13,116 nt of DNA. It comes from a candidate division WOR-3 bacterium (lineage in GTDB: Bacteria > Hydrothermota > Hydrothermia > JBDRYB01). This document shows, one piece after another, positions 1 through 13,116 of the stretch. The position numbers were made by a program, and so were the translations under genes. The stretch is taken from the NCBI GenBank assembly GCA_039803205.1, contig JBDRYB010000038.1, forward strand, positions 1 through 13,116, given 5' to 3'. The notes below the pieces were generated by a model. That model made no database searches, was not told the origin of the DNA, and worked only from the letters and a program-made list of their open reading frames with translations. The number at the start of each line of letters is the position of its first letter. Position 1 is the stretch's first letter.

Positions 1-457
1 AATCCGGCATATTCTCAGAACCCCTCCTCCAGTCCGAGGCCAGGCTCTCCTGGATAGCCTGGGACAGCACCCAGATAGGCTCTGAGGTGAGGATGTATAT
101 CAGGACGAGGTGGGATGGGAGCTCCCCTTGGACAAACTGGCGAGAGGTATCAAACGGGGAAACCGTATCCGAGTCCCCTTATTTCCCAGCGAGGGACATC
201 CAGTATCGCGCTGAGTTCAGGTGGAGAAATCCCTCTTGGCTCCCCTGGCTTGAGAAAGTTGAGTTGACCTCCCTTCCCCTCTCTGAGGATGAGGCCATCT
301 CAGGCTCAGAGGGCGTCCTGAGGTTCGGCTCCGGAAATGGGTTTATCTGGGTATCCTGGCCCAAAAACCAAGCTGATGTCTCGCTTTATTCCGCTGATGG
401 CAGGAGAATCGCCCTGAAGAGCCTACATGAAGGGAGGGCTGAATTCCGGGGCCTGAG
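1..457 (+). repeat. C-terminal constant region, copy A (matches 1992-2448 and 5518-5974)
   Basis: Manual alignment found 2 mismatches against copy B (128/2119, 443/2434) and about 10 against copy C. Confidence 0.95.
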
Positions 458-527
458 CTCAGGGGTGTATTACCTCTGGGTGAGTTCCCCCCAAAGCCTC
501 ATAAAAGAGAAGGTTGTCGTGAGATAA
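1..527 (+). CDS. 3' part (5'-truncated) of an FG-GAP/VCBS-repeat secreted protein with T9SS-type C-terminal sorting domain (paralogue A)
   Basis: Frame is open from base 3 (SGIFSEPLLQ...) to TAA at 525-527. Nearly identical to the 3' ends of 683..2518 and 4206..6044. CTD-like end VSLYSADGRRI...GVYYL...KVVVR. Confidence 0.9.
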   Translation, partial: SGIFSEPLLQSEARLSWIAWDSTQIGSEVRMYIRTRWDGSSPWTNWREVSNGETVSESPYFPARDIQYRAEFRWRNPSWLPWLEKVELTSLPLSEDEAISGSEGVLRFGSGNGFIWVSWPKNQADVSLYSADGRRIALKSLHEGRAEFRGLSSGVYYLWVSSPQSLIKEKVVVR

Positions 528-533
528 GGGATC

Positions 534-587
534 AAGGCCGGGCCGGAGACCCCTTGCACCTCCCGTTTGCTCCGGCCCGGCCTTTTT
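534..587 (+). terminator. Putative intrinsic terminator, 15-bp stem with 21-nt loop
   Basis: AAGGCCGGGCCGGAG (534-548) pairs with CTCCGGCCCGGCCTT (570-584), with TTTTT at 583-587, just after the stop codon. Confidence 0.75.
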
Positions 588-612
588 CAATTCCCACAAG
601 GGATTTGCTTGA

Positions 613-680
613 TTTTCTTTCAGTTTTCTTTCAGTTTTTTCCGTATAATATAGCCCTAGCTGAAACCTTTTGGAGGTGCA
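613..680 (+). promoter_or_regulatory. Putative promoter: 2x TTTTCTTTCAG direct repeat, TATAAT -10 (644-649), RBS GGAGGT (672-677)
   Basis: Perfect -10 hexamer conserved in all three module copies. No consensus -35 at 17 bp; the direct repeat covers that position. Confidence 0.6.
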
Positions 681-682
681 CT

Positions 683-876
683 ATGCTTGAACTTTGCATG
701 GCTCTCGTAGCGGGGTCCTGGACAGAGACAAGGCCCCAGGACTTCATGGATGGATGGTATGACCCTCTCCTGTATGTCTCACGGAGGCTTCAGGTTGAGG
801 GCGTGAATCCGGCCGACTCAGGAGCGGTGGAGTTCTATCCACGGTTTGACGCGAACAGGGATGGGTATTATGACCT
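683..876 (+). repeat. N-terminal constant region, copy B (matches 4206-4399)
   Basis: 687-837 is identical to the copy C counterpart; only a few substitutions up to the DGYYDL codons, then abrupt divergence. Confidence 0.95.
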
Positions 877-2518
877 TGTGGGAAGCGACGGGAACGGCCC
901 TTATATCAGACTTTTCCTTGGTTCACCTACGGGATATTCAAATACCAATGTGAGATTGTTCCCTATAACCTCAGGCGGCGCTTGCGATATGGCTGATCTC
1001 AATCTTGACGGGTGGCCGGAACTTATTCATTCTGGATACAAGATGCATGAATGCAGGATATATTGGGGGAGCCAAGCGGCAGGAGGGCCGGATCCCACTA
1101 ATTATACTACCCTTCCTCATGATAGCGCTGAAGCGGTATTCGTGAATGATTTGGACAGGGATACCTATCTGGACATAATTCTAGCGGAATCGGAAGCTGG
1201 AGGGCGCATCCGGGTCTATTGGGGGAGCTCCGGAGGCTATAACCCTGGACTTGTATCCTACAGAGATGATCTTTATGCTTATGGCCACAACATAGAAGTT
1301 GCGGATCTGAATAAGGATATGTATGAAGATGTGGTGCTCGTGCGTCGGGAGGATCCGCTCTGGGGACTTTCTATACTTTGGGGAGATGGGGATAGGGACC
1401 TACAAAACAACCTGGTTTGGTTTGATTGGGTTGGGAATAACACTGAGTTTATTCCCCATGGCCTTACCCTTGGAGATTTCAATAAGGATAGCTGGATAGA
1501 CATAGTGGTTACAAGCTGCGACTATTCTTTCCCCGCGGAGGCAGCAGTTTACTTCTCAGATAACGGTTCATTCAGTCCAAGTAACCGCCTAATTCTCCAT
1601 CCCAGCCATTCGTATGGTGGTTCATCTGCTTGGGATGTTAATGGGGATGGGTGGCTTGATATAGTGTGCTTCCGGGGAGGTGGAGGGGGTTGGAACGCTC
1701 CCTTGCTTCTCTACATTAACAAAGGGACTCCCCCGTATTTCAGTGATGATGACACAGTAAGAGTCGGCTACTCTGCTCAACACTCCGGAGGATTCTTGGG
1801 GGATTTTAATTGGGATGGAAAGGCGGACATTTTTGCCAATGTAAGAGAGCTTGCTTATGACTACGTATACTGGGGAGTCCAACCTACGGGTGCATATGAT
1901 AGTGTACAGATTCTGAGCGTTACCTATGATCACCACGGCGGGTTCCGTGAGTGCGGAAACATCTACGACCGCTCCCCTATGGCATGGTATGAATCCGGCA
2001 TATTCTCAGAACCCCTCCTCCAGTCCGAGGCCAGGCTCTCCTGGATAGCCTGGGACAGCACCCAGATAGGCTCTGAGGTGAGGATGTATATCAGGACGAG
2101 GTGGGATGGGAGCTCCCCATGGACAAACTGGCGAGAGGTATCAAACGGGGAAACCGTATCCGAGTCCCCTTATTTCCCAGCGAGGGACATCCAGTATCGC
2201 GCTGAGTTCAGGTGGAGAAATCCCTCTTGGCTCCCCTGGCTTGAGAAAGTTGAGTTGACCTCCCTTCCCCTCTCTGAGGATGAGGCCATCTCAGGCTCAG
2301 AGGGCGTCCTGAGGTTCGGCTCCGGAAATGGGTTTATCTGGGTATCCTGGCCCAAAAACCAAGCTGATGTCTCGCTTTATTCCGCTGATGGCAGGAGAAT
2401 CGCCCTGAAGAGCCTACATGAAGGGAGGGCTGAGTTCCGGGGCCTGAGAGCGGGAGTCTATTTCATAAAGCTTAACTTCCAAGAAGGTCATCTGACAGAG
2501 AAGATCATCGTAAGATAG
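683..2518 (+). CDS. FG-GAP/VCBS-repeat seven-blade beta-propeller secreted protein with T9SS-type CTD (paralogue B, 611 aa)
   Basis: ATG at 683 follows GGAGGT and matches the start of paralogue C. Seven DxxxDG-type motifs: DANRDG, DLNLDG, DLDRDT, DLNKDM, DFNKDS, DVNGDG, DFNWDG. CTD ends GVYFIKL...KIIVR. Confidence 0.9.
   Translation: MLELCMALVAGSWTETRPQDFMDGWYDPLLYVSRRLQVEGVNPADSGAVEFYPRFDANRDGYYDLVGSDGNGPYIRLFLGSPTGYSNTNVRLFPITSGGACDMADLNLDGWPELIHSGYKMHECRIYWGSQAAGGPDPTNYTTLPHDSAEAVFVNDLDRDTYLDIILAESEAGGRIRVYWGSSGGYNPGLVSYRDDLYAYGHNIEVADLNKDMYEDVVLVRREDPLWGLSILWGDGDRDLQNNLVWFDWVGNNTEFIPHGLTLGDFNKDSWIDIVVTSCDYSFPAEAAVYFSDNGSFSPSNRLILHPSHSYGGSSAWDVNGDGWLDIVCFRGGGGGWNAPLLLYINKGTPPYFSDDDTVRVGYSAQHSGGFLGDFNWDGKADIFANVRELAYDYVYWGVQPTGAYDSVQILSVTYDHHGGFRECGNIYDRSPMAWYESGIFSEPLLQSEARLSWIAWDSTQIGSEVRMYIRTRWDGSSPWTNWREVSNGETVSESPYFPARDIQYRAEFRWRNPSWLPWLEKVELTSLPLSEDEAISGSEGVLRFGSGNGFIWVSWPKNQADVSLYSADGRRIALKSLHEGRAEFRGLRAGVYFIKLNFQEGHLTEKIIVR
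1962..2448 (+). repeat. C-terminal constant region, copy B
   Basis: Begins TCTACGACCGCTCCCCTATGG (same as 5488) and ends GGCCTGAG. Confidence 0.95.
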
Positions 2519-2529
2519 GAGGTTTAACC

Positions 2530-4050
2530 ATGTGTAGCTTGCTCTTCAATATAGGTGTTCTGGGAGCCCTTTTCGCCAAGGGCTTGCCGGATCTGCAGAC
2601 GCTCCACTATGGCTCCTTTATGTGCACCACACGAGATGGAGGCTTCGCGGTCACCGGATATCTTCCTTCAGCGCTATTCGAAGGCGGAGGTCTCATAAAG
2701 CTCACTTCAACAGGCGAGCTGGATTGGGCAGTTGGGATATCAACCCTTCAACCGAGCTTTAGGCTTAGTGCCAGCGTGATCCAGACATCTGATGGTGGAT
2801 ACGCGATAGCAACAGACATAGAAAGGGAGGGGGCGCACGATTTTCTGGTCATTAAGCTCAACTCCAACGGTTCTTTCAGGTGGGCCAAGACCATAGGCGG
2901 AATCGTTGGAGATGATATCCCTACTTCCATAATAGAAACATACGATCACCATCTTGTAGTCTCAGGCTGGTCCACTAGCTACGGTAACGGAAGCACGGAT
3001 GCTCTTGTGGTTAGACTGGACGAGAACGCGGGGTTTGTGTGGGCTTGCACTTTGGGTTCACTATCGGAGGAAGAGATATACTCCTCTTCCCTTGCTCCTG
3101 GTGGTGACAACCGTTTTCTGTTTGCCGGAGTGGCTCACGGGGCCAATACGGATGTGATACTGTTTGAGTTGGACAACGCTGGAAACCCGATATACATGTA
3201 CAAATGCCAAGACATTGGAATTCCTAATGGTGAGGACTATGCAAGATGTGTTGTAGCCACTGCACCTGATAACGGGTTTTTGCTAGTTGGCGAAACGACG
3301 AGCTGGGGAGGTAGTGATATGTTCGTGGTCAGGGGAGATGCCACCGGAACAATGAGGTGGGCACGGCTAATTGGCGGACCGCTCGGAGAGGCCGCTCTCT
3401 CGGCCACGCAGACATCCGATGGGAACTTCGTTGTAGCCGGTATAACCTGGACATACAGCATAGGTGGAAGGGATCACATGATATTGAAAATGGATAACGA
3501 GGGGAATCTCCTGTGGTGCACTGGTTTTGGCGGACCTGACCAGGATTTCGCTCAGACGGTCGTTGAAGCTGAGGATGGAGACCTCGGTATCCTGGGTTGG
3601 GGAATGAGCTACGGTGTGCCAACGGCCCTATTGAAGATAAGAGCTGATGGGACCTATCCTAACTGCGTTATGGAGATCCGGCCGATTGTCTCAGAAGTGA
3701 TACCCAACCATGGCCCTCACTCCCTTGCTCACCAACCCTGCACCCCGGATATCCTACCCGCTGATGTCCAGATAACCCCATTTTCCACATCCCTTACTAA
3801 TATATGTGAACCTCTATACGAGGACCTCAAAGAGACACGAGATTTGCCTCACTCTTCCCTCCTCTGCGCTTCATCATCCGGAGGCCTCCTGTTCATCTCT
3901 CCAATTGAAACGAAGATAAGCATATACTATCCCGATGGCCGGATAGCCTATGTTGGTGAGCTAAGTGCAGGGCGAAACCGGATCGCTCTTGGACCAGGAA
4001 TATACCTGTGGCAGACAGGGACTTACAGCGGTAAAGCTGTGGTGAAGTAA
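2530..4050 (+). CDS. Secreted beta-propeller-repeat protein (QTSDGG-type repeats) with T9SS-like CTD
   Basis: 506 aa; RBS AGGAGGT overlaps the upstream TAG. About seven repeats: TRDGGFAVTG, QTSDGGYAIA, ETYDHHLVVSG, PGGDNRFLFAG, PDNGFLLVG, QTSDGNFVVAG, EAEDGDLGILG. C-terminus ISIYYPDGRI...GIYLW...KAVVK. Confidence 0.85.
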   Translation: MCSLLFNIGVLGALFAKGLPDLQTLHYGSFMCTTRDGGFAVTGYLPSALFEGGGLIKLTSTGELDWAVGISTLQPSFRLSASVIQTSDGGYAIATDIEREGAHDFLVIKLNSNGSFRWAKTIGGIVGDDIPTSIIETYDHHLVVSGWSTSYGNGSTDALVVRLDENAGFVWACTLGSLSEEEIYSSSLAPGGDNRFLFAGVAHGANTDVILFELDNAGNPIYMYKCQDIGIPNGEDYARCVVATAPDNGFLLVGETTSWGGSDMFVVRGDATGTMRWARLIGGPLGEAALSATQTSDGNFVVAGITWTYSIGGRDHMILKMDNEGNLLWCTGFGGPDQDFAQTVVEAEDGDLGILGWGMSYGVPTALLKIRADGTYPNCVMEIRPIVSEVIPNHGPHSLAHQPCTPDILPADVQITPFSTSLTNICEPLYEDLKETRDLPHSSLLCASSSGGLLFISPIETKISIYYPDGRIAYVGELSAGRNRIALGPGIYLWQTGTYSGKAVVK

Positions 4051-4057
4051 AGAGCCC

Positions 4058-4111
4058 AGGCCGGGCCGGAAATCCCTTGCACCTCCCGTTTGCTCCGGCC
4101 CGGCCTTTTTT
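4058..4111 (+). terminator. Putative intrinsic terminator (copy 2)
   Basis: AGGCCGGGCCGGA pairs with TCCGGCCCGGCCT, followed by a T6 tract. Confidence 0.75.
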
Positions 4112-4205
4112 CAATTCCCACAAGGGATTTACCCGATTCTTTTTAGTTTTCTTTCAGTTTTTTCCCGTATAATATAACCCTAGCTGAAACCTCTGGAGGT
4201 GCACT
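4058..4205 (+). repeat. Intergenic module copy 2
   Basis: Same hairpin, TTTTCTTTCAG, TATAAT (4168-4173) and GGAGGTGCACT as 535-682. Confidence 0.95.
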
Positions 4206-6044
4206 ATGTTTGAACTTTGCATGGCTCTCGTAGCGGGGTCCTGGACAGAGACAAGGCCCCAGGACTTCATGGATGGATGGTATGACCCTCTCCTGTATGT
4301 CTCACGGAGGCTTCAGGTTGAGGGCGTGAATCCGGCCGACTCAGGAGCGGTGGAGTTCTACCCACGGTTTGACGCGAACAGGGACGGATATTATGACCTG
4401 GTATCATCCGAGTATGGCGGGCCAAACATAATCATCTGGTGGGGAAGCCCAACAGGATACAGCTCAACAAACAGGCGAAACTTCCCGGTTACAACGGCCG
4501 GAAACTGCGACATGGCGGACCTGAACCTTGATGGGTGGCCAGAGCTCATTGCCTCATGCACGGGAAGCAACGATACCTGCAAGATATACTGGGGCTCTCA
4601 GGCATCCGGAGGCCCTGATCCCAACAACTTTACCCCTCTCCCTCACGGAGGCTCTGAAACCGTTTACATCTATGACCTGGACAAGGATACATACCTTGAT
4701 GTCGTGCTTGGAACCCAACTCGGTACATGGAGTCCAATCAAGGTCTTCTGGGGGGGGCCGGGGGGATATTCCCCTGGTAACCTCTCTGTAAGCCTTGATG
4801 TGAAGGTTCAAGGCCACAACCTTGAGATATGCGACCTCAACAAGGATGGATATCCGGATATCGTATCTCCATATGCAGACGCATCGGGATGGGGGCCGCA
4901 CATCCTTTGGGGAGATGCCACCCCGAGGGACCTCACGGACAACCCTACTTGGTTCCACACGAGATCAGGTGCCTCAAATGCCCACGGTATTACCTTGGCT
5001 GATCTCAACAACGACGGTTGGCTGGATATCGTGGTTTCTTCTTTTGCATCAGGGAACCTCTCATCCGTTTATTTCTCTGATAATGGAACCTTCAACCCGA
5101 CCAATTCCATTACCCTCACCACTTCCTCCTGCTATGGCGGTTCAATAGCCTGGGATTTCAACGAGGATGGCTGGCTTGACCTCCTGTTTCTGCCAGGATA
5201 CGCTACAGCAAAGAAGCCCACAATATACTTTAATACCGGGACTCCACCGTATTTCGCTGATGCGGATACCGTTGGTGTAGGTTTGGCGGTTCAGTATTCA
5301 GGCGGCTTCATAGCTGATTTCAACCTTGATGGGAAACCGGACCTCTTCGCGAACGGGTGGGACAACGTTATCGGCGTTGACACATCCTTTGTGTTCTGGG
5401 GAATAAGCCCCTCGGGCTCGTGCGACAGCATCCAGAAACTACCCACTAATATTGATCACCATGGGACCTTCCGTGAATACAGCAATGTCTACGACCGCTC
5501 CCCTATGGCATGGTATGAATCCGGCATATTCTCAGAACCCCTCCTCCAATCCGAGGCCAGGCTCTCCTGGGTAGCCTGGGACAGCACCCAGATAGGCTCT
5601 GAGGTGAGGATGTATATCAGGACGAGGTGGGATGGGAGCTCCCCTTGGACAAACTGGCGAGAGGTATCAAACGGGGAAACCGTATCTGAGTCCCCTTATT
5701 TCCCAGCGAGGGACATCCAGTATCGCGCTGAGTTCAGGTGGAGAAATCCCTCTTGGCTCCCCTGGCTTGAGAAAGTTGAGTTGACCTCCCTTCCCCTCTC
5801 TGAGGATGAGGCCATCTCAGGCTCAGAAGGCGTCCTGAGGTTCGGCTCCGGAAAAGGGTTTATCTGGGTATCCTGGCCTGGGAACCAAGCTGATGTCTCG
5901 CTTTATTCCGCTGATGGCAGGAGAATCGCCCTGAAGAGCCTACATGAAGGGAGGGCTGAGTTCCGGGGCCTGAGCTCAGGGGTGTATTACCTCTGGGTGA
6001 GTTCCCCCCAAAGCCTCATAAAAGAGAAGGTTGTCGTGAGATAA
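4206..6044 (+). CDS. FG-GAP/VCBS-repeat seven-blade beta-propeller secreted protein with T9SS-type CTD (paralogue C, 612 aa)
   Basis: RBS GGAGGT. Motifs DANRDG, DLNLDG, DLDKDT, DLNKDG, DLNNDG, DFNEDG, DFNLDG. CTD tail identical to paralogue A. Confidence 0.92.
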   Translation: MFELCMALVAGSWTETRPQDFMDGWYDPLLYVSRRLQVEGVNPADSGAVEFYPRFDANRDGYYDLVSSEYGGPNIIIWWGSPTGYSSTNRRNFPVTTAGNCDMADLNLDGWPELIASCTGSNDTCKIYWGSQASGGPDPNNFTPLPHGGSETVYIYDLDKDTYLDVVLGTQLGTWSPIKVFWGGPGGYSPGNLSVSLDVKVQGHNLEICDLNKDGYPDIVSPYADASGWGPHILWGDATPRDLTDNPTWFHTRSGASNAHGITLADLNNDGWLDIVVSSFASGNLSSVYFSDNGTFNPTNSITLTTSSCYGGSIAWDFNEDGWLDLLFLPGYATAKKPTIYFNTGTPPYFADADTVGVGLAVQYSGGFIADFNLDGKPDLFANGWDNVIGVDTSFVFWGISPSGSCDSIQKLPTNIDHHGTFREYSNVYDRSPMAWYESGIFSEPLLQSEARLSWVAWDSTQIGSEVRMYIRTRWDGSSPWTNWREVSNGETVSESPYFPARDIQYRAEFRWRNPSWLPWLEKVELTSLPLSEDEAISGSEGVLRFGSGKGFIWVSWPGNQADVSLYSADGRRIALKSLHEGRAEFRGLSSGVYYLWVSSPQSLIKEKVVVR

Positions 6045-6168
6045 GGGATCAAGGCCGGGCCGGAGACCCCTTGCACCTCCCGTTTGTTCCGGCCCGGCCT
6101 TTTTCAATTCCCACAAGGGATTTGCTTGATTTTCTTTCAGTTTTCTTTCAGTCCATTCCGTATAATAT
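5488..6168 (+). repeat. C-terminal constant region copy C plus intergenic module copy 3 (5518-6168 matches 1-651)
   Basis: Direct repeat at offset 5517 from window start; homology ends just after TATAATAT. Confidence 0.95.
6051..6104 (+). terminator. Putative intrinsic terminator (copy 3)
   Basis: Same stem with one C>T change giving a G-U pair at the top; T5 tract follows. Confidence 0.75.
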
Positions 6169-6207: not shown

Positions 6208-7785
6208 ATGAACTATCTAATCATGCTCATAGGATACGCTTGGCCGCCTGGATGGTGGCCGCAGTATGGCGCGGATGCCCAGCACACGAGGGTTCAGCTC
6301 ATGAAGGGGAACATGATAGGGCAACCTGCCATCATAGGAATCAATCTTTCCAGTGGAACGGAGAGCGAGGGCCCTGCCATAGCAACGATATCCGGAGTGA
6401 GCCACATCTTCCTTGAGTACGACTATGGAGACCCTGATGGGATAATTGCAATAAGGTATGTTGGTTTCTACGAGAGAGCGTGGAGCTGGGACTACGCTAA
6501 TGTTCCATCCCAGGGCTCTGCTTTGGCTGTTTGGGATGTTGACAACGACGGGACAGTGGAGGTGCTTCACGCCAACCAATATACCTCCGAGGACATTGGG
6601 GCCATATTTTGCCGGGTGGGGGCCACCGGGGTTCTAGAGTGGTATGGCCCTTACGATCAGCCGGATGCCGCGACTCCAACCATTTATGATCTGGATGGCA
6701 ACGGAACCATGGAGATATTCTTCGGGTGCATGACGGATGATACTCTCTACTGTTTAAATTCCAACGGAACTTTGCGCTGGAAGTCACCAAAACCCTCTGG
6801 TGGCGGGGACATGAATTACGCTCCTGCGGTTGGACAGATTATCCCCGGTGGAGACCCTGAGATTGTGGTTCAAACAGGGGATTATATTGCCATGTATAAT
6901 GCGAGGACAGGGGCTTTGCTCGCCTCCAGAGATATGCTCAGTGGCACCCTTTGTAGTGCACCGGCAATCGCAGATGTGGATAAAGATGGTGTTATGGAGG
7001 TCTTCATATACAAGGATTCATCAGATGTTCTTGGAGAGCGTCTCTGGTGCTTGAAACCCTCGGGTTCTGGCTTCACCCCCCTTTGGTCCAAACAGGTCTC
7101 TTGCGGCGGAAATGTTCAGAAACAGGGCATGGGCATAGCAGATCTCAACAACGACGGGTGGCTTGATGTGGTTATAGGTGCCGGCGGCACATCGGACAGA
7201 GTTTACTGTTTTAGGGGTTATGATGGTTATCAGATATGGGTATCTAATCAGCTAGCGGGAGATGTTCATAGGGGCGTGGCTATCGCCGATATTGATGGGG
7301 ATAATCGCTGGGAGGTCATCGCCCAGACAATTCCAGGTTGGATATACTGCCTAGCCGGGGAAAACGGGGCGATCCAGTGGCAGGTTGAGTTGCCTTCTTG
7401 CACGGATGCCCACGATGTCAGTGTAGGAGATACGGACAACGATGGTTGCTCCGAGATAGTCGTGGCTGGCGACGGTGGTTCCAGGCTTTGGGTTCTGGAC
7501 AGGAGTGGGACTAACTGCGGCTCGGTTGACGCTGAGGAGGCCGAGACAGGGGAGCGGGCCATCAAGGCTTGGTTTTCGGATGGTAAGATCTGCATCTCAT
7601 CGCCTCGTGATGGTAATGCCATGATCAGCATCTACGACCCCGTGGGCCGTCTTGTTCTATACAGAGAGATGAAGCTCCTGCGAGGAGAAAATTCGCTGAT
7701 TGTTGACCTAGAACCAGGGATATATATGGGCATAATAAATACAGGGAAAGAAACAGCGAGGTTCAGGATCCTCTTGACGAAATAG
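6208..7785 (+). CDS. FG-GAP / PQQ-like beta-propeller secreted protein with T9SS-like CTD
   Basis: 525 aa; RBS GGAGGT at 6197-6202. N-terminal [11 protein letters not shown] motif; DVDNDG, DLDGNG, DVDKDG, DLNNDG, DIDGDN, DTDNDG motifs. C-terminus [11 protein letters not shown]...PGIYM. Confidence 0.88.
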
Positions 7786-8629
7786 AAGCCCTTTCAGAAT
7801 CCTCATATGCGAGCGCGACCGCCTTGGCTTTGTCCCTAACCCTCAGGATGAACCTCGCCCTGTCCGTAGGAGACAAGGCGCCCCGGGCGTCAAGCATGTT
7901 GAACGCGTGAGACATCTTTATGACAGCATCATAAGCGGGGTAAAGTAGACCCTTTCCAAGCAGGCGCTCGGCCTCGGCCTCATACTTTTCAAATAGATAA
8001 AGAAAGAAATCCGGATCCGACTCCTCGTAGTTATACACCGAAAACTCGCGCTCAAAATCCCTGTAGATGTCACCCCATGTCACCTCTTCGTTCCACTTGA
8101 GGTCAAATATGCTTCCTTTGCCCTGGAGATACATGGCTATTCGCTCAAGGCCGTAGGTTATCTCGCCTGTTATGAGCTGGAGGTCAAGTCCGCCTACTTG
8201 CTGGAAATAGGTGAACTGGGTTATCTCAAGCCCATCAAGCCAGACCTCCCATCCGAGGCCCCAAGCGCCCAGGGTCGGGGATTCCCAGTCGTCCTCCACG
8301 AAACGGATGTCGTGATCCTCAAGCTTGATGCCCAAGGCTCTCAGGGATTCAAGGTATATGTCCTGAAAGTCATCCGGAACCGGCTTCATCACAACCTGAT
8401 ACTGGTGATACTGCTGAACCCGGTTGGGGTTCTCAGCGTATCGGCCGTCCTTTGGCCTTCTGGCTACCTCAACATAAGCCGCGCGCCACGGCCTCGGGCC
8501 CAAAGCCCTCAGGAATGTCGCTGGATTGAATGTCCCCGCGCCTAGCTCGGAGTTATATGGCTCAAGTAGAACGCAACCCTGGGATTCCCAAAAGGAATCA
8601 AGCGCCCTTATTAGCCTCTGAAATGTCAT
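7763..8629 (-). CDS. glyQ: Glycine--tRNA ligase alpha subunit
   Basis: Signature motifs [82 protein letters not shown]. Confidence 0.98.
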
Positions 8630-8631
8630 GG

Positions 8632-9411
8632 CTATTCCACGATTATCCGCTCGGTGAAAGCCTTGTTCCCCATCTCGGCCCTGAGGATGTAGGCCCCCCT
8701 GGGCAGGGATGAAGTTATCGTTATGATGTGGGTTCCGGCCCGGAGGTATTCCTCAAGCCTGAAGACATTTCTCCCGAGCATATCTGTGAGCACGAGGCTG
8801 GTTCGCGAGTCCTCTGGGACCCGGAGCCTGATGTTCAGCGGCCCGCTACCTGGGTTCGGATAGACGGAGAGGGTCGCCTCAGGGATGGGCTCGCCCTCTT
8901 CAACAGCGTAATAAACCTCAGCAACAGCCCTTATCAGAAAGTCCCCCGGAAAGCCATCGTCCTGGTGCCAGAGAACCCCATCATACCACCAATTGTAACC
9001 ATCAAGGAAGGTGTCGTGCCAGTTGAAGTATACCGTGTCTCCACGCTGATCCTCTGATGACCAGCCAGGATATATCCAGCCTTTGTTCACGGTTATGTTT
9101 TGCCCAGAGATGTTTATGTAGTTCCAGGAATCGTATGAGGGGTTTATTACGCCCTCAGCGAGAAGGGTGCCCGGATTCCCACCGTCGTCATCATCCCAAA
9201 GGCAATAGTGGAGCTTGGGATTCAGCCCATTGGGGTTTGCTGGATAAAATAGGAGCCCCAGAACCCACGCGGAGTCAGGCACAGGCAGGGAAACCGCTTC
9301 TCGCCATTCCGAGAAATCGTTCCCACCCCAGTTATACGGGGTTCCATCATCAACCCTCAGGGTTTCGGTCTCCTGGGGGAAGAGAAGAAGTATCGGTAAA
9401 AGGTTTATCAT
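8632..9411 (-). CDS. Secreted protein with T9SS type A sorting domain (259 aa)
   Basis: Likely start [11 protein letters not shown] at 9411 (hydrophobic signal, GGAG just upstream). Canonical CTD: AVEE...LSVYPNP...TDMLGRNV...GAYILR...IIVE. Confidence 0.85.
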
Positions 9412-9637
9412 GCTCCGCAAACTGTGCCTTAAAGCGCTGAACCTCGTCAGCGAAGACCTTGATGAGTATCCCGAGGACAACAGCGTCATCTGTTATCCCG
9501 ACCAAGGGCGCGAGGTCAGATATGAGATCAAAGGGCAGAATGAAGTATAGGAGAGAGAAAATGAGGACGAAGTAGAGCCTCTTGCGGGGCCTGTATCTTC
9601 CCCTGAGCCAGGCCGAGATCATCCCAAAGAAGGCCAT
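9350..9637 (-). CDS. YkvA / DUF1232 family small membrane protein
   Basis: Motif LLYFILPFDLISD..PLVG.TDDAVV. ATG at 9637 has AGGGAG upstream. Overlaps the next gene's start. Confidence 0.85.
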   Translation of the reverse strand: MAFFGMISAWLRGRYRPRKRLYFVLIFSLLYFILPFDLISDLAPLVGITDDAVVLGILIKVFADEVQRFKAQFAEHDKPFTDTSSLPPGDRNPEG

Positions 9638-9692
9638 TATGTTCTCCCTCGCTCTGCTGGTTCGGTTCCCTTTTTCTTCCAAACGCCCCCAT

Positions 9693-9701
9693 ATTATAAC
9701 A
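9693..9701 (-). promoter_or_regulatory. Extended -10 promoter (TGTTATAAT) for the ykvA-like / CTD protein / glyQ unit
   Basis: Reverse complement of attataaca matches TGnTATAAT. Confidence 0.55.
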
Positions 9702-9740
9702 CCCCTGAGCCTGCCGGTGCATCCTCTTGCACTTTGGCCT

Positions 9741-9746
9741 TATAAT
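9741..9746 (+). promoter_or_regulatory. Putative -10 (TATAAT) for pckA
   Basis: Perfect hexamer 30 nt upstream of the ATG; RBS GAAGGAG at 9762-9768; no good -35. Confidence 0.45.
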
Positions 9747-9776
9747 ATTCAAGCTAGCCTTGAAGGAGAGATTTCA

Positions 9777-11420
9777 ATGGATTTCTGGAAAAACCTTAAC
9801 ACCCTCTTGGAGAGGCATCCGAACACCCTTTTTAACCCGCCCAGGCCCGATCTCATCAGGATGGCGGTTGAGAACAAAGAGGCGATAGTCTCGGCAAACG
9901 GCGCGCTCGCTACATGGACCCCGAAGGAATCCACGGGCAGAAGCCCTCAGGACACATACATGGTTCGGCGCCCTCAGAGCGAGAAAAACATAGACTGGGA
10001 CTCCCCGAACTGCATCCCCATGGAGCCGAGCACCTTTGAGATGCTCTGGGAGGACGCGCTGAAGACCCTTTCAGAAAAGCCGAGGCTCTACATAATGGAT
10101 AGGGCGCTCTCTGCTGATCCCTCCTATGCCCTCAAGCTCAAGGTCGTCACGGACAGGGCCCTCCACGCGCTCTTCTCATGGAACATGTTCAGGGAGCTTC
10201 CCCCCGGAGCAGAGAAGAGCGTTTTCGCTGACAGGGAGTTCATCCTTCTCGTTTTGCCATATAACAAGCTGGACAGGGCCAGATACGAGGGAAGGCTCAG
10301 AAGGCTCCCTGATGGCAGGACATCGGATATGGCCGTGGCCATGGATTTTGATAACATGCTTGGGGTTGTCTATGGCTCAGCTTACTGCGGTTCCATAAAA
10401 AAGACCATGTTCACGGTGATGAACTACCTTCTCCCTGAGGTCGGCATCCTCCCGATTCACTGCGCGGCAAACGAGGGACCCGCTGGGGATTGCGCCTTGT
10501 TCCTCGGTCTTTCTGGAACCGGAAAGACATCGCTTTCGGCCGATCCGTCAAGGGCGCTTCTAGGAGATGACGAGCACGGCTGGTCAGACAACGGGATAGC
10601 GAACTTTGAGAACGGTTGCTACGCGAAGCTCATAAACCTCAGGCAGGACAAGGAGCCTGACATCTGGAACGCGGTTCTCCACGAGGACCATTACCTGAAC
10701 CACGGCGCTATTGTTGAGAACGCCATGATCTATCCCGATGGGCGCTTTGACCTTGACGACGACAGGTTCACACCGAACTCAAGGGCATCGTATCCCCTTT
10801 ATTTCCTCAGGAACATAAAGGATCCTCCCGTATCAGGCCATCCGAAGACCATATTGTTTCTGGCCGCTGATGCTAATGGCGTCCTGCCGCCAATAGCAAG
10901 ACTGAACGAGAAGCAGGCCATGCTTTGGTTCCTCATGGGCTACACAAGCAAGCTCGCTGGCACTGAAACCGGCATAATTGACCCTGTTTTCACATTCTCC
11001 AGGTTCTTCGGAGCGCCCTTCATGCCCCGCAACCCATCGGATTACACCACCCTCCTTGAGGAGAAGATAAGGAAGCACGGCTCAAGGGTCTACCTAGTTA
11101 ACACGGGCTGGTCCGGCGGGCCATTCGGGGTAGGCAAGCGAATAGACATAACCCTGACCAGGAGAATGGTTTCTGCGGCCCTCTCCGGCGAGCTTGAAAA
11201 TGTTCCCTACAAAGAGGACCCCCTCTTCCACCTCCAGATCCCGACCGAGTGCCCGGGCGTTCCCTCTGAGATACTCTTCCCGAAGAACACCTGGCCCAAC
11301 AAGGACGGGTTTGACGAGATGGCCCGTAAGCTCGCCGCGGAGTTCTCAAAGGCGTTTGACAAGTCGTTTGGAGGAAAGGTCACTGACCCAGATGTCGTGA
11401 GCCAGTGCCCTGGCAAGTGA
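9777..11420 (+). CDS. pckA: Phosphoenolpyruvate carboxykinase (ATP)
   Basis: TGRSP, Y.GSIKK, HCAAN, P-loop GLSGTGKT, GDDEHGW, NFENGCYAK, GVLPPI, YLVNTGW. ATG at 9777 follows GAAGGAG. Confidence 0.97.
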   Translation: MDFWKNLNTLLERHPNTLFNPPRPDLIRMAVENKEAIVSANGALATWTPKESTGRSPQDTYMVRRPQSEKNIDWDSPNCIPMEPSTFEMLWEDALKTLSEKPRLYIMDRALSADPSYALKLKVVTDRALHALFSWNMFRELPPGAEKSVFADREFILLVLPYNKLDRARYEGRLRRLPDGRTSDMAVAMDFDNMLGVVYGSAYCGSIKKTMFTVMNYLLPEVGILPIHCAANEGPAGDCALFLGLSGTGKTSLSADPSRALLGDDEHGWSDNGIANFENGCYAKLINLRQDKEPDIWNAVLHEDHYLNHGAIVENAMIYPDGRFDLDDDRFTPNSRASYPLYFLRNIKDPPVSGHPKTILFLAADANGVLPPIARLNEKQAMLWFLMGYTSKLAGTETGIIDPVFTFSRFFGAPFMPRNPSDYTTLLEEKIRKHGSRVYLVNTGWSGGPFGVGKRIDITLTRRMVSAALSGELENVPYKEDPLFHLQIPTECPGVPSEILFPKNTWPNKDGFDEMARKLAAEFSKAFDKSFGGKVTDPDVVSQCPGK

Positions 11421-11425
11421 GTTAC

Positions 11426-11541
11426 CCGGTCCCCAAAGATCACGGGCCTAATTGACTGTGTAGGTGCGGATTTCCTCTGCGCCTCCCAAGTAGGCCCTTT
11501 AGTCCGGTCGCGGCCGAATACGGCCCCCTGGCCTCAGGGGC
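11426..11541. other. Structured intergenic segment (long imperfect hairpin plus two short hairpins); possible ncRNA or terminator region
   Basis: GGGCCTA/TAGGCCC, AGGTGCGGA/TCTGCGCCT, GGCCG-AATA-CGGCC, CCCCTG-GCCT-CAGGGG. Confidence 0.4.
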
Positions 11542-11665
11542 AAAATTATAAAATCCTCTTGAGTCAAGTATTTCCCGGTTCCCTGCCGGAGCTTGACAGG
11601 GTTTTATTGGGGATTAAGAGATCGCAAGAGCGCTAATCCGCACCGGGCCTAAAAAAGATTCGCGC

Positions 11666-11708
11666 TTGACTCTCTCTCTCTCTGGACTTTACAATTTGCG
11701 CCGGAGGT
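11666..11708 (+). promoter_or_regulatory. Sigma70-like promoter TTGACT-N18-TACAAT with (CT)7 tract, and RBS GGAGGT
   Basis: -35 at 11666-11671, -10 at 11690-11695, (CT)7 at 11670-11683, RBS at 11703-11708. Confidence 0.7.
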
Positions 11709-11712
11709 TTTC

Positions 11713-13032
11713 ATGGGACTGAAGCAGTCAAGATACAACTTCTTCTTTGATGGGGACGGAGGGGCCAAGCTCGCTTTCAACTCCATGACAGCGGCCCTGG
11801 CAGAGATAGAGCCAGATAAGTGGCCCATAATACAGAAACTTCTGGACGATCCGAACAGAGCGCCCCTGAACGAGACCGAAAAGGAGCTCCTTGAACAGCT
11901 CAAATACGGAGGGTTCCTCATAGACGAGGACTTTGATGAGATAGCCTACCTCAAGGTCATGAACAGGATGGCAAGGTTCTCAAGGGACAGCCTGGGCCTG
12001 ACAATATGCCCTACCCTAAACTGCAACTTCAGGTGCTTCTACTGCTACGAGACACACCCTCAGGGGGTCATGTCAAAAGAGGTTCAGGATAAGCTGGTTG
12101 AGTTTGCTAAGGAAAGGCTCGAAGGATCTAAGAGCTTTCAGGTAACCTGGTATGGCGGTGAGCCCCTCCTTGCCTTTGATGTGATTGAGAACCTCTCGGA
12201 GAGGTTCATTGAGTATTGCGACGAAAAGGGCATTGATTACTCTGCCTTCATCGTTACCAACGGCTATCTTCTCACCCCGGACAAGGCCAAGCGCCTCGCG
12301 GATCTCAGGGTCTCAGGGGCCCAGATAACCCTTGATGGCCCTCCTGAGGTTCACGACAAGCGCCGTGTCCTGGCCAACGGGGGGCCGACATTCTGGAGGA
12401 TTATGGAGAACCTGAAATCCGCTCTGGGGTTTATTCCGAACATAACCATAAGGATAAATGTGGACAGGGAGAACAGGGACAGGGCTTTGGAACTTCTGGA
12501 TGTGCTGGAGAGGGAGGGATTAAAGGATAGATTGATAGTTTCAATCGGAAGAGTACATCGTATAAGTAACGTATGCAACGATATGGTAGAAGAGATCTCC
12601 TACAACAAGGAGGAGTATAGAGAAATACTTTTAGAGTTGCGGGAGGAAGGTTACAAAAGAGGGTTTGGACTCTGGCAAAGACCAAAGTCAAGGGATGTTT
12701 TTTGCGCGGCAGAGAGAATCAATTTCTTTTTGGTAGACTGTGAGGGGCGTTTGTTCAAGTGCTGGACAGAGATAGATGATAACAAACCCGTAGGCAATGT
12801 CTGGCCGGAGCGAAAGCGGGATTTCTCCAGGGAAAGCAAGTGGCTATTGCATGAACCTTTTGAAAACCCGACTTGTTTGGGGTGCAGATTGCTACCAATA
12901 TGTATGGGGGGATGCCCTTACCAAGCTATGAGGGATCAAAAGCTGCCCTGCGAATACACCGGCTCTGACGAGTTGCAAAAGCATCTGGTCATGAGTTATT
13001 CTAGCCGGCATGGTTGGTGTCCGGAGCTATAA
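11713..13032 (+). CDS. Radical SAM / SPASM domain protein, probable peptide maturase
   Basis: CNFRCFYC (CX3CX2C), WYGGEP, TNG, QITLDG. SPASM C-x13-G-x4-C ... CxxC-x5-C-x3-C ... C. N-terminal SRYN...GGFLI extension typical of the RRE-like domain of peptide maturases. Confidence 0.92.
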   Translation: MGLKQSRYNFFFDGDGGAKLAFNSMTAALAEIEPDKWPIIQKLLDDPNRAPLNETEKELLEQLKYGGFLIDEDFDEIAYLKVMNRMARFSRDSLGLTICPTLNCNFRCFYCYETHPQGVMSKEVQDKLVEFAKERLEGSKSFQVTWYGGEPLLAFDVIENLSERFIEYCDEKGIDYSAFIVTNGYLLTPDKAKRLADLRVSGAQITLDGPPEVHDKRRVLANGGPTFWRIMENLKSALGFIPNITIRINVDRENRDRALELLDVLEREGLKDRLIVSIGRVHRISNVCNDMVEEISYNKEEYREILLELREEGYKRGFGLWQRPKSRDVFCAAERINFFLVDCEGRLFKCWTEIDDNKPVGNVWPERKRDFSRESKWLLHEPFENPTCLGCRLLPICMGGCPYQAMRDQKLPCEYTGSDELQKHLVMSYSSRHGWCPEL

Positions 13033-13049
13033 CAACAAGGAGGTGAACT

Positions 13050-13116
13050 ATGAGATACATATGGAAGCCAACCGAGGAACACGCTGAGTCGTGTTGGGAT
13101 ATCTGCCCAACCAAGT
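13050..13116 (+). CDS. Candidate Cys-containing RiPP precursor peptide (3'-truncated): MRYIWKPTEEHAESCWDICPTK...
   Basis: Strong RBS AAGGAGGTGA at 13037-13046; starts 17 nt after the rSAM stop; open to the window end; CxxxC. Confidence 0.7.
   Translation, partial: MRYIWKPTEEHAESCWDICPTK

Follow-up and report, generated by a model that had tools for sequence, protein, structure and literature searches.

The 3' end of a 13,116-nucleotide stretch of DNA from a candidate division WOR-3 bacterium carries a gene for a radical S-adenosylmethionine (SAM) peptide maturase, P0002, and directly behind it the first codons of a small Cys-rich peptide gene. The stretch, hereafter the window, corresponds to the entire contig C38 of G000, a 2.3-Mb genome that is 96% complete; the complete 45-residue form of the peptide, P0001, was read from a second contig of the same genome, C1. 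The closest named homolog of P0002 is that of a candidate division WOR-3 bacterium, and the metagenome runs containing window sequence (X1, X2 and X3, where X2 is another sample of the X1 study) are hot-spring samples. The organism is probably a thermophile. The features that matter to the argument are these:

11713..13032, plus strand: P0002, RRE-radical SAM-SPASM peptide maturase of 439 residues (hidden Markov model [HMM] scores, PF04055, and CteB as best solved relative)
11713..11988, plus strand: leader-binding RRE domain, residues 1-92 (model fold comparison)
12022-12045, plus strand: SAM-cluster motif CxxxCxxC, C104/108/111 (sequence)
12703..12951, plus strand: SPASM domain, C331 to C413 (sequence, HMM and homolog alignment)
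11713..12477, plus strand: conserved 5' half, codons 1-255, with the RRE, the SAM motif and most of the barrel; GC content at third codon positions (GC3) 0.68
12478..13032, plus strand: variable 3' half, with the last barrel strand, the linker and SPASM; GC3 0.52
12477/12478, plus strand: breakpoint relative to the form of the relative P0003 (departure of an X3 contig; alignment)
12970..13116, plus strand: start of the segment shared with C1, comprising the last ~20 maturase codons, the peptide and then, past the window, a C25-peptidase-like gene
13037..13045, plus strand: ribosome-binding site AAGGAGGTG of the peptide gene (sequence; the ACAACAAGGAGG stretch also precedes the peptide at L037, the locus of the relative P0005)
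13050..13116, plus strand: precursor peptide gene, first 22 codons and one base (complete 45-residue, 7-Cys form from C1 444-307, minus strand)

The maturase and its precursor peptide

The original prediction, made from the letters of the window, had named a locus for a peptide made on the ribosome and modified post-translationally (RiPP) consisting of a maturase with a full SPASM Cys set behind an N-terminal extension and a small Cys-containing precursor. All seven SPASM cysteines are indeed present (C331-X13-G-X4-C350, C388-X2-C391-X5-C397-X3-C401-X11-C413), and each is kept in 117-119 of 119 homologs; with the SPASM model TIGR04085 the score is 48.3 bits (cut-off 27), and PF04055 matches as well. 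The extension, residues 1-92, has an RRE-type fold. Modelled alone it reached a predicted local distance difference test score (pLDDT) of 94, and its structural matches were TigE (Z 8.7, root-mean-square deviation 2.9, 92 residues aligned), MccB (8.3), TbiB1 (6.7), a lasso B1 protein (6.6) and PbtF (6.3), RiPP enzymes making up eight of the ten top structure-matched chains. A sequence profile of the RRE run against the PDB gave nothing significant (best RiPP match TigE, E 1.9), and Foldseek with the RRE model returned no match at E<=0.001. For the whole enzyme the best solved relative by both sequence and fold is CteB (E 3.6e-31; Foldseek 3e-13), the fold match being of low quality because SPASM is poorly modelled; the full-length AlphaFold model is poor, with pLDDT below 50 at residues 323-402 and 284-291.

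The five best NCBIfam models for P0002 are all RiPP maturases for Cys-rich peptides, each scoring under its cut-off. First comes the Clo7bot maturase TIGR04334 (367.9 bits against 600, full length, E 6e-110), then TIGR04463 (304.5 against 525, E 1e-90) and CefB (228.4 against 600); the geopeptide maturase model gave 192.6 against 400. Lower scores came from PapB (116/340 bits), ScfB (67/425) and TIGR04115 (48.4/350), and from the cyclophane families DynA (78/450), YhhB (58/445) and DarW (51/650). The relatives P0003-P0007 score 294-354 bits with TIGR04334. A likeness of the leader to Clo7bot-type peptides had also been proposed; it holds for the enzyme, whose best HMM is TIGR04334 (368/600), and neither gene is a member of the family.

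The small open reading frame (ORF), missing from the ORF track on which the prediction drew, begins at ATG 13050, 17 bases past the maturase stop and behind AAGGAGGTG, and encodes MRYIWKPTEEHAESCWDICPTK, with a single T left over before the contig stops; the dash in the peptide sequence as first written down is not a gap. The last 147 nucleotides of the window recur on C1 with 146/147 identical (one mismatch followed by 127 identical bases), in what looks like an assembly-graph overlap. On C1 the frame closes at 45 codons, with a 14-residue leader-like start, a Cys-rich core and a Gly-rich tail. Its cysteines, at positions 15, 19, 23, 27, 31, 33 and 35, spell CX3CX3CX3CX3CXCXC, so that the CX3CX3C first guessed was correct and stopped short.

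Assembly of the metagenome runs links the two contigs. In X1 the contig covering 11802-13019 and a 19-kb C1-side contig end at the same place, and in the assembly graph both enter a 2,159-nucleotide contig that begins at 12990, agrees at every base (0 differences) with the end of the window and with positions 1-504 of L001, the C1 locus, and extends past the end of C1. The same junction contig, of 2,561 nucleotides, is found in X2. Contig depths (47 against 27 and 33 in X1; 10.6 against 5.8 and 6.2 in X2) fit two copies, depths not being copy numbers. No single contig spans the whole maturase-peptide stretch, and contig assemblies drop rare variants. Sequence is missing from X3 (12520-13116 and L001 1-504) and from X2 (12805-12989), and these holes were not counted as evidence. 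The peptide of the window is very probably P0001, present twice: behind the intact maturase, and on C1 behind only its last 20 codons. The C1 copy does not continue as a long ordinary protein, and the structure of the graph makes it very likely that the window copy does not either.

Few genes of this kind occur in the genome: among 100 ORFs of 25-80 residues behind AGGAGG, two have at least five Cys, P0001 among them. P0001 matched no family in NCBIfam or Pfam. The Clo7bot peptide model TIGR04333 (cut-off 31 bits) does not match it, and in a genome search gave one unrelated 15-bit match on C14; two protein searches for homologs returned P0001 alone, plus one unrelated repeat protein. ESM Atlas matches are all below 0.9 (best 0.85), with the bacteriocin-labelled clusters CLI_3235 and CLOSPO_01332 at 0.77-0.82, and serve as leads only. 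A complex prediction for the RRE (1-92) with the peptide scored 0.28 against a mark of 0.32 and was counted neither way.

Comparable pairs recur elsewhere. The homolog group of P0002 comprises 1,520 proteins at E<=1e-60, and at E<=1e-70 a homolog is present in 11 of 271 other phylum genomes. Eight of these 11 loci have an adjacent small Cys-rich ORF, most starting M-[KDET]-[YFW]-[IL]-x-x-P, and a Cys-rich ORF with a similar leader stands at 11 of 17 metagenome loci, which were examined from a set of 22 and include several near-duplicates. A contig scan found one further distant maturase locus, with no peptide seen there. With the RRE fold, the RiPP-maturase top HMMs and the short closed peptide, these recurring ORFs bear out the prediction of a RiPP locus. 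Since two same-genus genomes have no maturase match at E<=1e-40 and carry different genes after pckA, the unit is accessory.

Two homolog loci differ in layout from the window. Upstream of the homologous maturase in a same-phylum genome, three genes for Cys-rich precursors with MDYILQP and MDFILKP leaders stand in tandem at L024 1001-1396. At L053 5701-7362 a homologous maturase with a 74-residue Cys-rich precursor sits among archaeal-looking genes, probably Thermococcales-like.

The mosaic back half and the peptide core

Over residues 1-250 P0002 shares 99% identity with P0003, accession MEO0212206.1, and 96% with P0004; over residues 251-415 identity falls to 38% and 30%, respectively (P0004 ends early, and its comparison is shorter), and Clostridia Clo7bot-type maturases are 32-35% identical there. 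The drop was placed among 7,021 pairs from the 119 top homologs, a set that had been clustered at 90% identity and selected for similarity to P0002, hence not a random sample; P0010, a 688-residue protein with a tandem pair of CxxxCxxC radical SAM cores followed by one SPASM domain, was left out. Seventy-one pairs are at least 75% identical over residues 1-227. Ten of them are under 45% over residues 277-415, and these are exactly the pairs among P0002-P0006 (82-100% over 1-227, 26-37% over 277-415); the remaining 61 are 61-94% identical over 277-415. In trees of 43 rows the terminal branches of P0002-P0005 measure 0-0.09 for the front half (N tree) and 0.99-1.52 for the back half (C tree).

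The DNA shows the same discontinuity. Codon 256 marks a drop in GC3, which is 0.68 before it and 0.52 from there on. An X3 contig tracks window positions 12113-12477 with 7 differences and departs at codon 255/256, where its 20 loose bases read in frame P-G-A-V-Q-L, which are residues 256-261 of P0003; an X1 contig (11802-13019, 0 differences) crosses the same point in the form of the window. Each junction form is therefore present in DNA, and the organisms concerned are ~98% identical along that stretch. By alignment the breakpoints differ among relatives (~codons 228, 256 and 276), which fits homologous rather than site-specific recombination. Divergence at four-fold sites relative to L037 is 54% in front and 75% behind, the 12 back-half sites being too few to use. 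No relative of the P0002 back half exceeds 39% identity among 626 candidates, and a search with the back half alone gave 17 other proteins at 30-39%, hence no donor. That the back half is of recombinant origin we hold with high confidence.

The peptides at related loci suggest that the core may change with it. At L037 (P0005, an 82% relative) the leader is MRYILKP with an unrelated 38-residue core, and the same 12 bases as in the window surround the ribosome site. At L039 (P0007, a ~70% relative) the leader is MTYLIEP, again with an unrelated core, of 42 residues. The leader thus appears to track the front half and its RRE and the core to differ with the back half, with one informative comparison among P0002-P0006. 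A crossover in the conserved 5' half would keep the RRE-leader pair and supply a different half facing the substrate, together with the core that belongs to it. Co-exchange of back half and core as a route of diversification has, in our view, about even chances or slightly better. The wider scheme, a plug-and-play system in which the fixed front half is a recombination arm, cassettes of back half and cognate core are swapped, and a library of bridged peptides arises from one leader-recognition chassis, is put forward more tentatively, at a little under even odds. Turnover at the strain level suggests a product for competition or signalling rather than for housekeeping or metal storage, a role we consider possible and would not press.

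On the far side of the unit, X3 contigs leave the G000 sequence at the edge of the duplicated segment on C1, and one of them continues into bases matching the 3' part of a paralog of the gene after the peptide. This suggests that the recombination arm on this far side may be the end of the paralog. The gene after the peptide (L001 2-253, minus strand) is 41% identical over 71 residues to this paralog, a C25 peptidase with a type IX secretion system (T9SS) tail elsewhere on C1 (L063 916-3534). Both start with ~10 hydrophobic residues and no basic n-region, and the tail-coding end of the paralog is common to the start of C10, to C7 and to another C1 site. As a candidate leader peptidase the C25-like gene was set aside; it does not stand beside L037, L038 or L039. 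At the edge of the duplicated segment lies a ~55-nucleotide element (L001 515-571 on C1) that has at least 15 matches in genome G002 and 3 in G001, many at contig ends, and one weak second copy only in G000.

Remnants of the maturase gene occur on C3 (codons 11-51), on C1 (last 20 codons), in G001 and at L050. In the C3 copy (L002 6275-6424; C3 112275-112424, minus strand) 30 nucleotides like window 11531-11560 are joined directly to maturase codons 11-51. It sits just behind a gene for an uncharacterised protein of ~205 residues ending in GVRW, homologs of which flank the maturase at L038 and L039, and it may mark the ancestral site.

Upstream of the maturase one further feature was recorded:

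11666..11695, plus strand: sigma-70-like promoter match TTGACT-18-TACAAT (consensus match alone)

One such site occurs in 11380-11760, against a mean of 0.2 in shuffled sequence. Its spacer contains a (CT)n run (11668-11683), 4 bases of which are absent from an X3 contig; the length difference could tune the promoter. An Rfam search of the window gave no match. The neighbouring genes (7763-11420) encode the glycyl-tRNA synthetase alpha subunit (7763-8629, minus strand), a T9SS-tail protein, a DUF1232 protein and ATP-dependent phosphoenolpyruvate carboxykinase. At the other end of the window (1-6168) are three tandem FG-GAP/T9SS-tail paralogs (3-527, partial; 554-2518; 4206-6044), with further copies on C30, C16 and C2; they share DNA blocks of 95-98% identity at their 3' ends and some 5' ends and differ in the middle, a pattern that would fit gene conversion or cassette shuffling among secreted proteins.

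Predicted chemistry and competing explanations

By analogy with CrpC, whose cysteines are given in the available part of PMC13692751 as 104/108/111, 333/352/403 and 390/393/399/422 behind an RRE at 1-92, auxiliary cluster I (AuxI) of P0002 is predicted to be held by C331/350/401 and AuxII by C388/391/397/413. P0002 has the three-cluster Cys set (3 + 3 + 4) and the RRE, as does CrpC. According to the same portion of that source, CrpC makes thioethers, probably ranthionine, in ACAGM, CAVD, PCAGD and CPLVL, with the Cys preceding the acceptor. The near match in Cys numbering, together with the thioethers made by CrpC, makes Cys-to-carbon rings likely, and we regard it as probable, by this analogy, that P0002 makes such thioethers on P0001; a beta or gamma (ranthi) linkage is somewhat more likely than an alpha linkage.

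In the mechanism we propose, the RRE would bind the M-R-Y-I-x-K-P leader of the adjacent peptide, the 5'-deoxyadenosyl radical would take a hydrogen from the acceptor residue (as in the chemistry of CrpC, CteB and PapB), and a Cys of the substrate, bound to the open iron of AuxI, would couple to the acceptor carbon. In a CrpC-like C-X-X-acceptor register up to five in-line rings would form (C15-I18, C19-K22, C23-I26, C27-N30 and C31-Q34). P0001 also contains C31-X-X-Q34, a C-X-X-Q/D motif, and C33-X3-E37; CX3E is a PapB-type motif in the accessible text of PMC9413430.

Putting the parts together, we read the locus as a two-gene RiPP unit that places thioether rings on its adjacent peptide and whose maturase back half, probably with the core, has been replaced by recombination; we give this reading as a whole a probability of roughly 0.6. 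Several observations count against it. On the chemistry, modification is predicted from domains and relatives, as is the activity of P0002, which lies under every maturase-family cut-off. At the six catalytic-proximity positions defined in the part of PMC10288494 available, where CteB reads F/F/T/S/H/Q, P0002 has Y112, Y147, V181, T206, W351 and T352, none of the six identical. An eighth Cys, C288, is kept in 116/119 homologs and could fill the open site of AuxI; the role of the auxiliary clusters is described as system-dependent in the accessible portion of PMC10114670. Few Asp or Glu acceptors lie in the C15-C31 series. For export, no ABC (ATP-binding cassette) transporter was seen in the available flanks of the window, L037, L038 or L039, and G000 (96% complete) has 0 matches to C39 peptidase. 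On recombination, the evidence for the X3 junction is 20 loose bases in a single contig of depth 3.7, and the study it comes from also includes the likely source run; the C tree, built by a quick method, carries a long-branch warning, and in it the back halves fall, poorly separated, near their own lineage and not among distant clades; the swaps leave five of the six proximity positions almost invariant, so that the reaction type was probably left unchanged; and among the four swapped relatives the precursor is known for P0005 alone.

The strongest alternative is an ordinary thioether RiPP unit in which the mosaic is a by-product of gene conversion that homogenised the 5' halves of old, decaying paralogs, with no coupling to the peptide and no selective gain. 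Decay is visible in the 5' and 3' remnants in G000 (C3, C1), G001 and L050 and in a frameshifted copy at L038, the genome converts other paralogs (the 95-98% blocks of the tandem FG-GAP/T9SS genes), and the placement of the back halves near one lineage in the C tree would be expected. We nevertheless judge it unlikely: P0002, P0003, P0005 and P0006 retain full-length SPASM Cys sets after the switch, the testable relative P0005 combines a different back half and a different core with the same leader, and X3 contigs also extend over the flank on the pckA side, differing there at few positions, a sign that the replacement took place at the same site.

A second alternative keeps the modification and drops the thioether. 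The enzyme would form a Trp16-X-Ile18 cyclophane or another C-C bond, C288 would complete AuxI and the cysteines would remain free to form disulfides or bind metal. An aromatic-X-X pattern is matched by W16-D17-I18, and a Trp crosslink at WDI had been offered as an alternative in the original prediction. C288 is conserved, the proximity residues are unlike those of CteB, and the best structural match of the RRE is TigE, a non-thioether enzyme (presumably cyclopropane-forming). However, the cyclophane and C-C families score far lower than the two best families (DynA 78, YhhB 58 and DarW 51 against 368 and 305 bits), the CrpC of the second-best family makes thioethers, and Cys occurs in all 16/16 aligned neighbour peptides while a core Trp does not, W16-D-I being absent from the peptide of the closest relative, which has no Trp. 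The Trp crosslink is therefore weak, and we consider this alternative improbable.

More improbable again is an unmodified metallothionein-like peptide or a relic, with an enzyme that acts on another substrate or on none. Seven Cys within 21 residues, no transporter seen nearby and the second peptide copy behind only the last 20 maturase codons would suit it; but P0002 has an RRE, homologs across the phylum and in other lineages are repeatedly accompanied by Cys-rich ORFs whose leaders are similar, and a leader-pattern search of G000 found only this peptide. Finally, an assembly artefact in the completed peptide or the mosaic, conceivable because the window ends in a repeat, the whole stretch is spanned by no single contig, rare variants are dropped and X1 may be the source run, has very little probability given that the X1 junction contig from 12990 matches both sides exactly and recurs in X2, and that the mosaic pattern is seen in five proteins, drawn from NCBI, JGI and ENA.

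Relation to known maturase systems

P0002 probably works like the thioether maturases of the CrpC, CteB and Clo7bot types and, by score and by substrate, is a member of none of them. CrpC of Methanococcus voltae (TIGR04463), as far as the available text of PMC13692751 describes it, shares the RRE at 1-92, the 104/108/111 motif, a near-identical SPASM numbering (compared without aligning CrpC itself) and an adjacent Cys-repeat substrate; that substrate, CrpA, is a 28.8-kDa repeat protein in the same text, whereas the neighbour of P0002 is a peptide of 45 residues. P0002 further differs in its mosaic back half and in having no CrpB-like partner. To proteins named Clo7bot maturase, which come from a different phylum, identity is 38-41%; a short peptide likewise lies downstream, and the proximity residues YYVTW are common to P0002 and three of four Clo7bot maturases checked. 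CteB, the SCIFF ranthisynthase (PDB 5WGG/5WHY), has the same RRE-radical SAM-SPASM layout at ~20% identity. In contrast to SCIFF and PapB substrates, P0001 has neither a six-Cys SCIFF core nor a run of CX3D, and one CX3E. The Cys-every-fifth system CefAB (NF038107/8) also pairs a periodic-Cys precursor with a SPASM maturase, but the period in P0001 is four, not five; the CefA model matches 2/16 neighbour peptides and not P0001. P0001 contains a CXXX repeat and matches no peptide model of the CXXX-repeat system (TIGR04115), whose maturase model gives the 48.4/350 bits noted above.

Our literature search found no paper on Clo7bot (TIGR04333/TIGR04334) chemistry, nothing relevant among the papers listed on WOR-3 RiPPs or on FlmE, OhkG or CefB, and no report of intragenic maturase swaps, cases of which subscription journals and figure-only supplements may hold.

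Taken alone, the two-gene unit adds a further uncharacterised case to a large group of maturases, with a precursor outside any family. The mosaic adds weight: near-identical relatives differ at ~65% of back-half residues. If the halves travel with their cores, these natural chimeras reveal at which points a radical SAM/SPASM maturase stays functional when cut, leader recognition (the RRE) is separable from core selection (the linker and SPASM), and an open question of the field becomes testable with four or five enzymes. In the available part of a 2026 review (PMC13500794), RiPPs are described as diversifying mainly through tolerant, conserved enzymes and variable cores, with little mix-and-match of maturases. 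The conserved leader and variable core seen here agree with that pattern; what differs is that the catalytic back half also varies between near-identical relatives.

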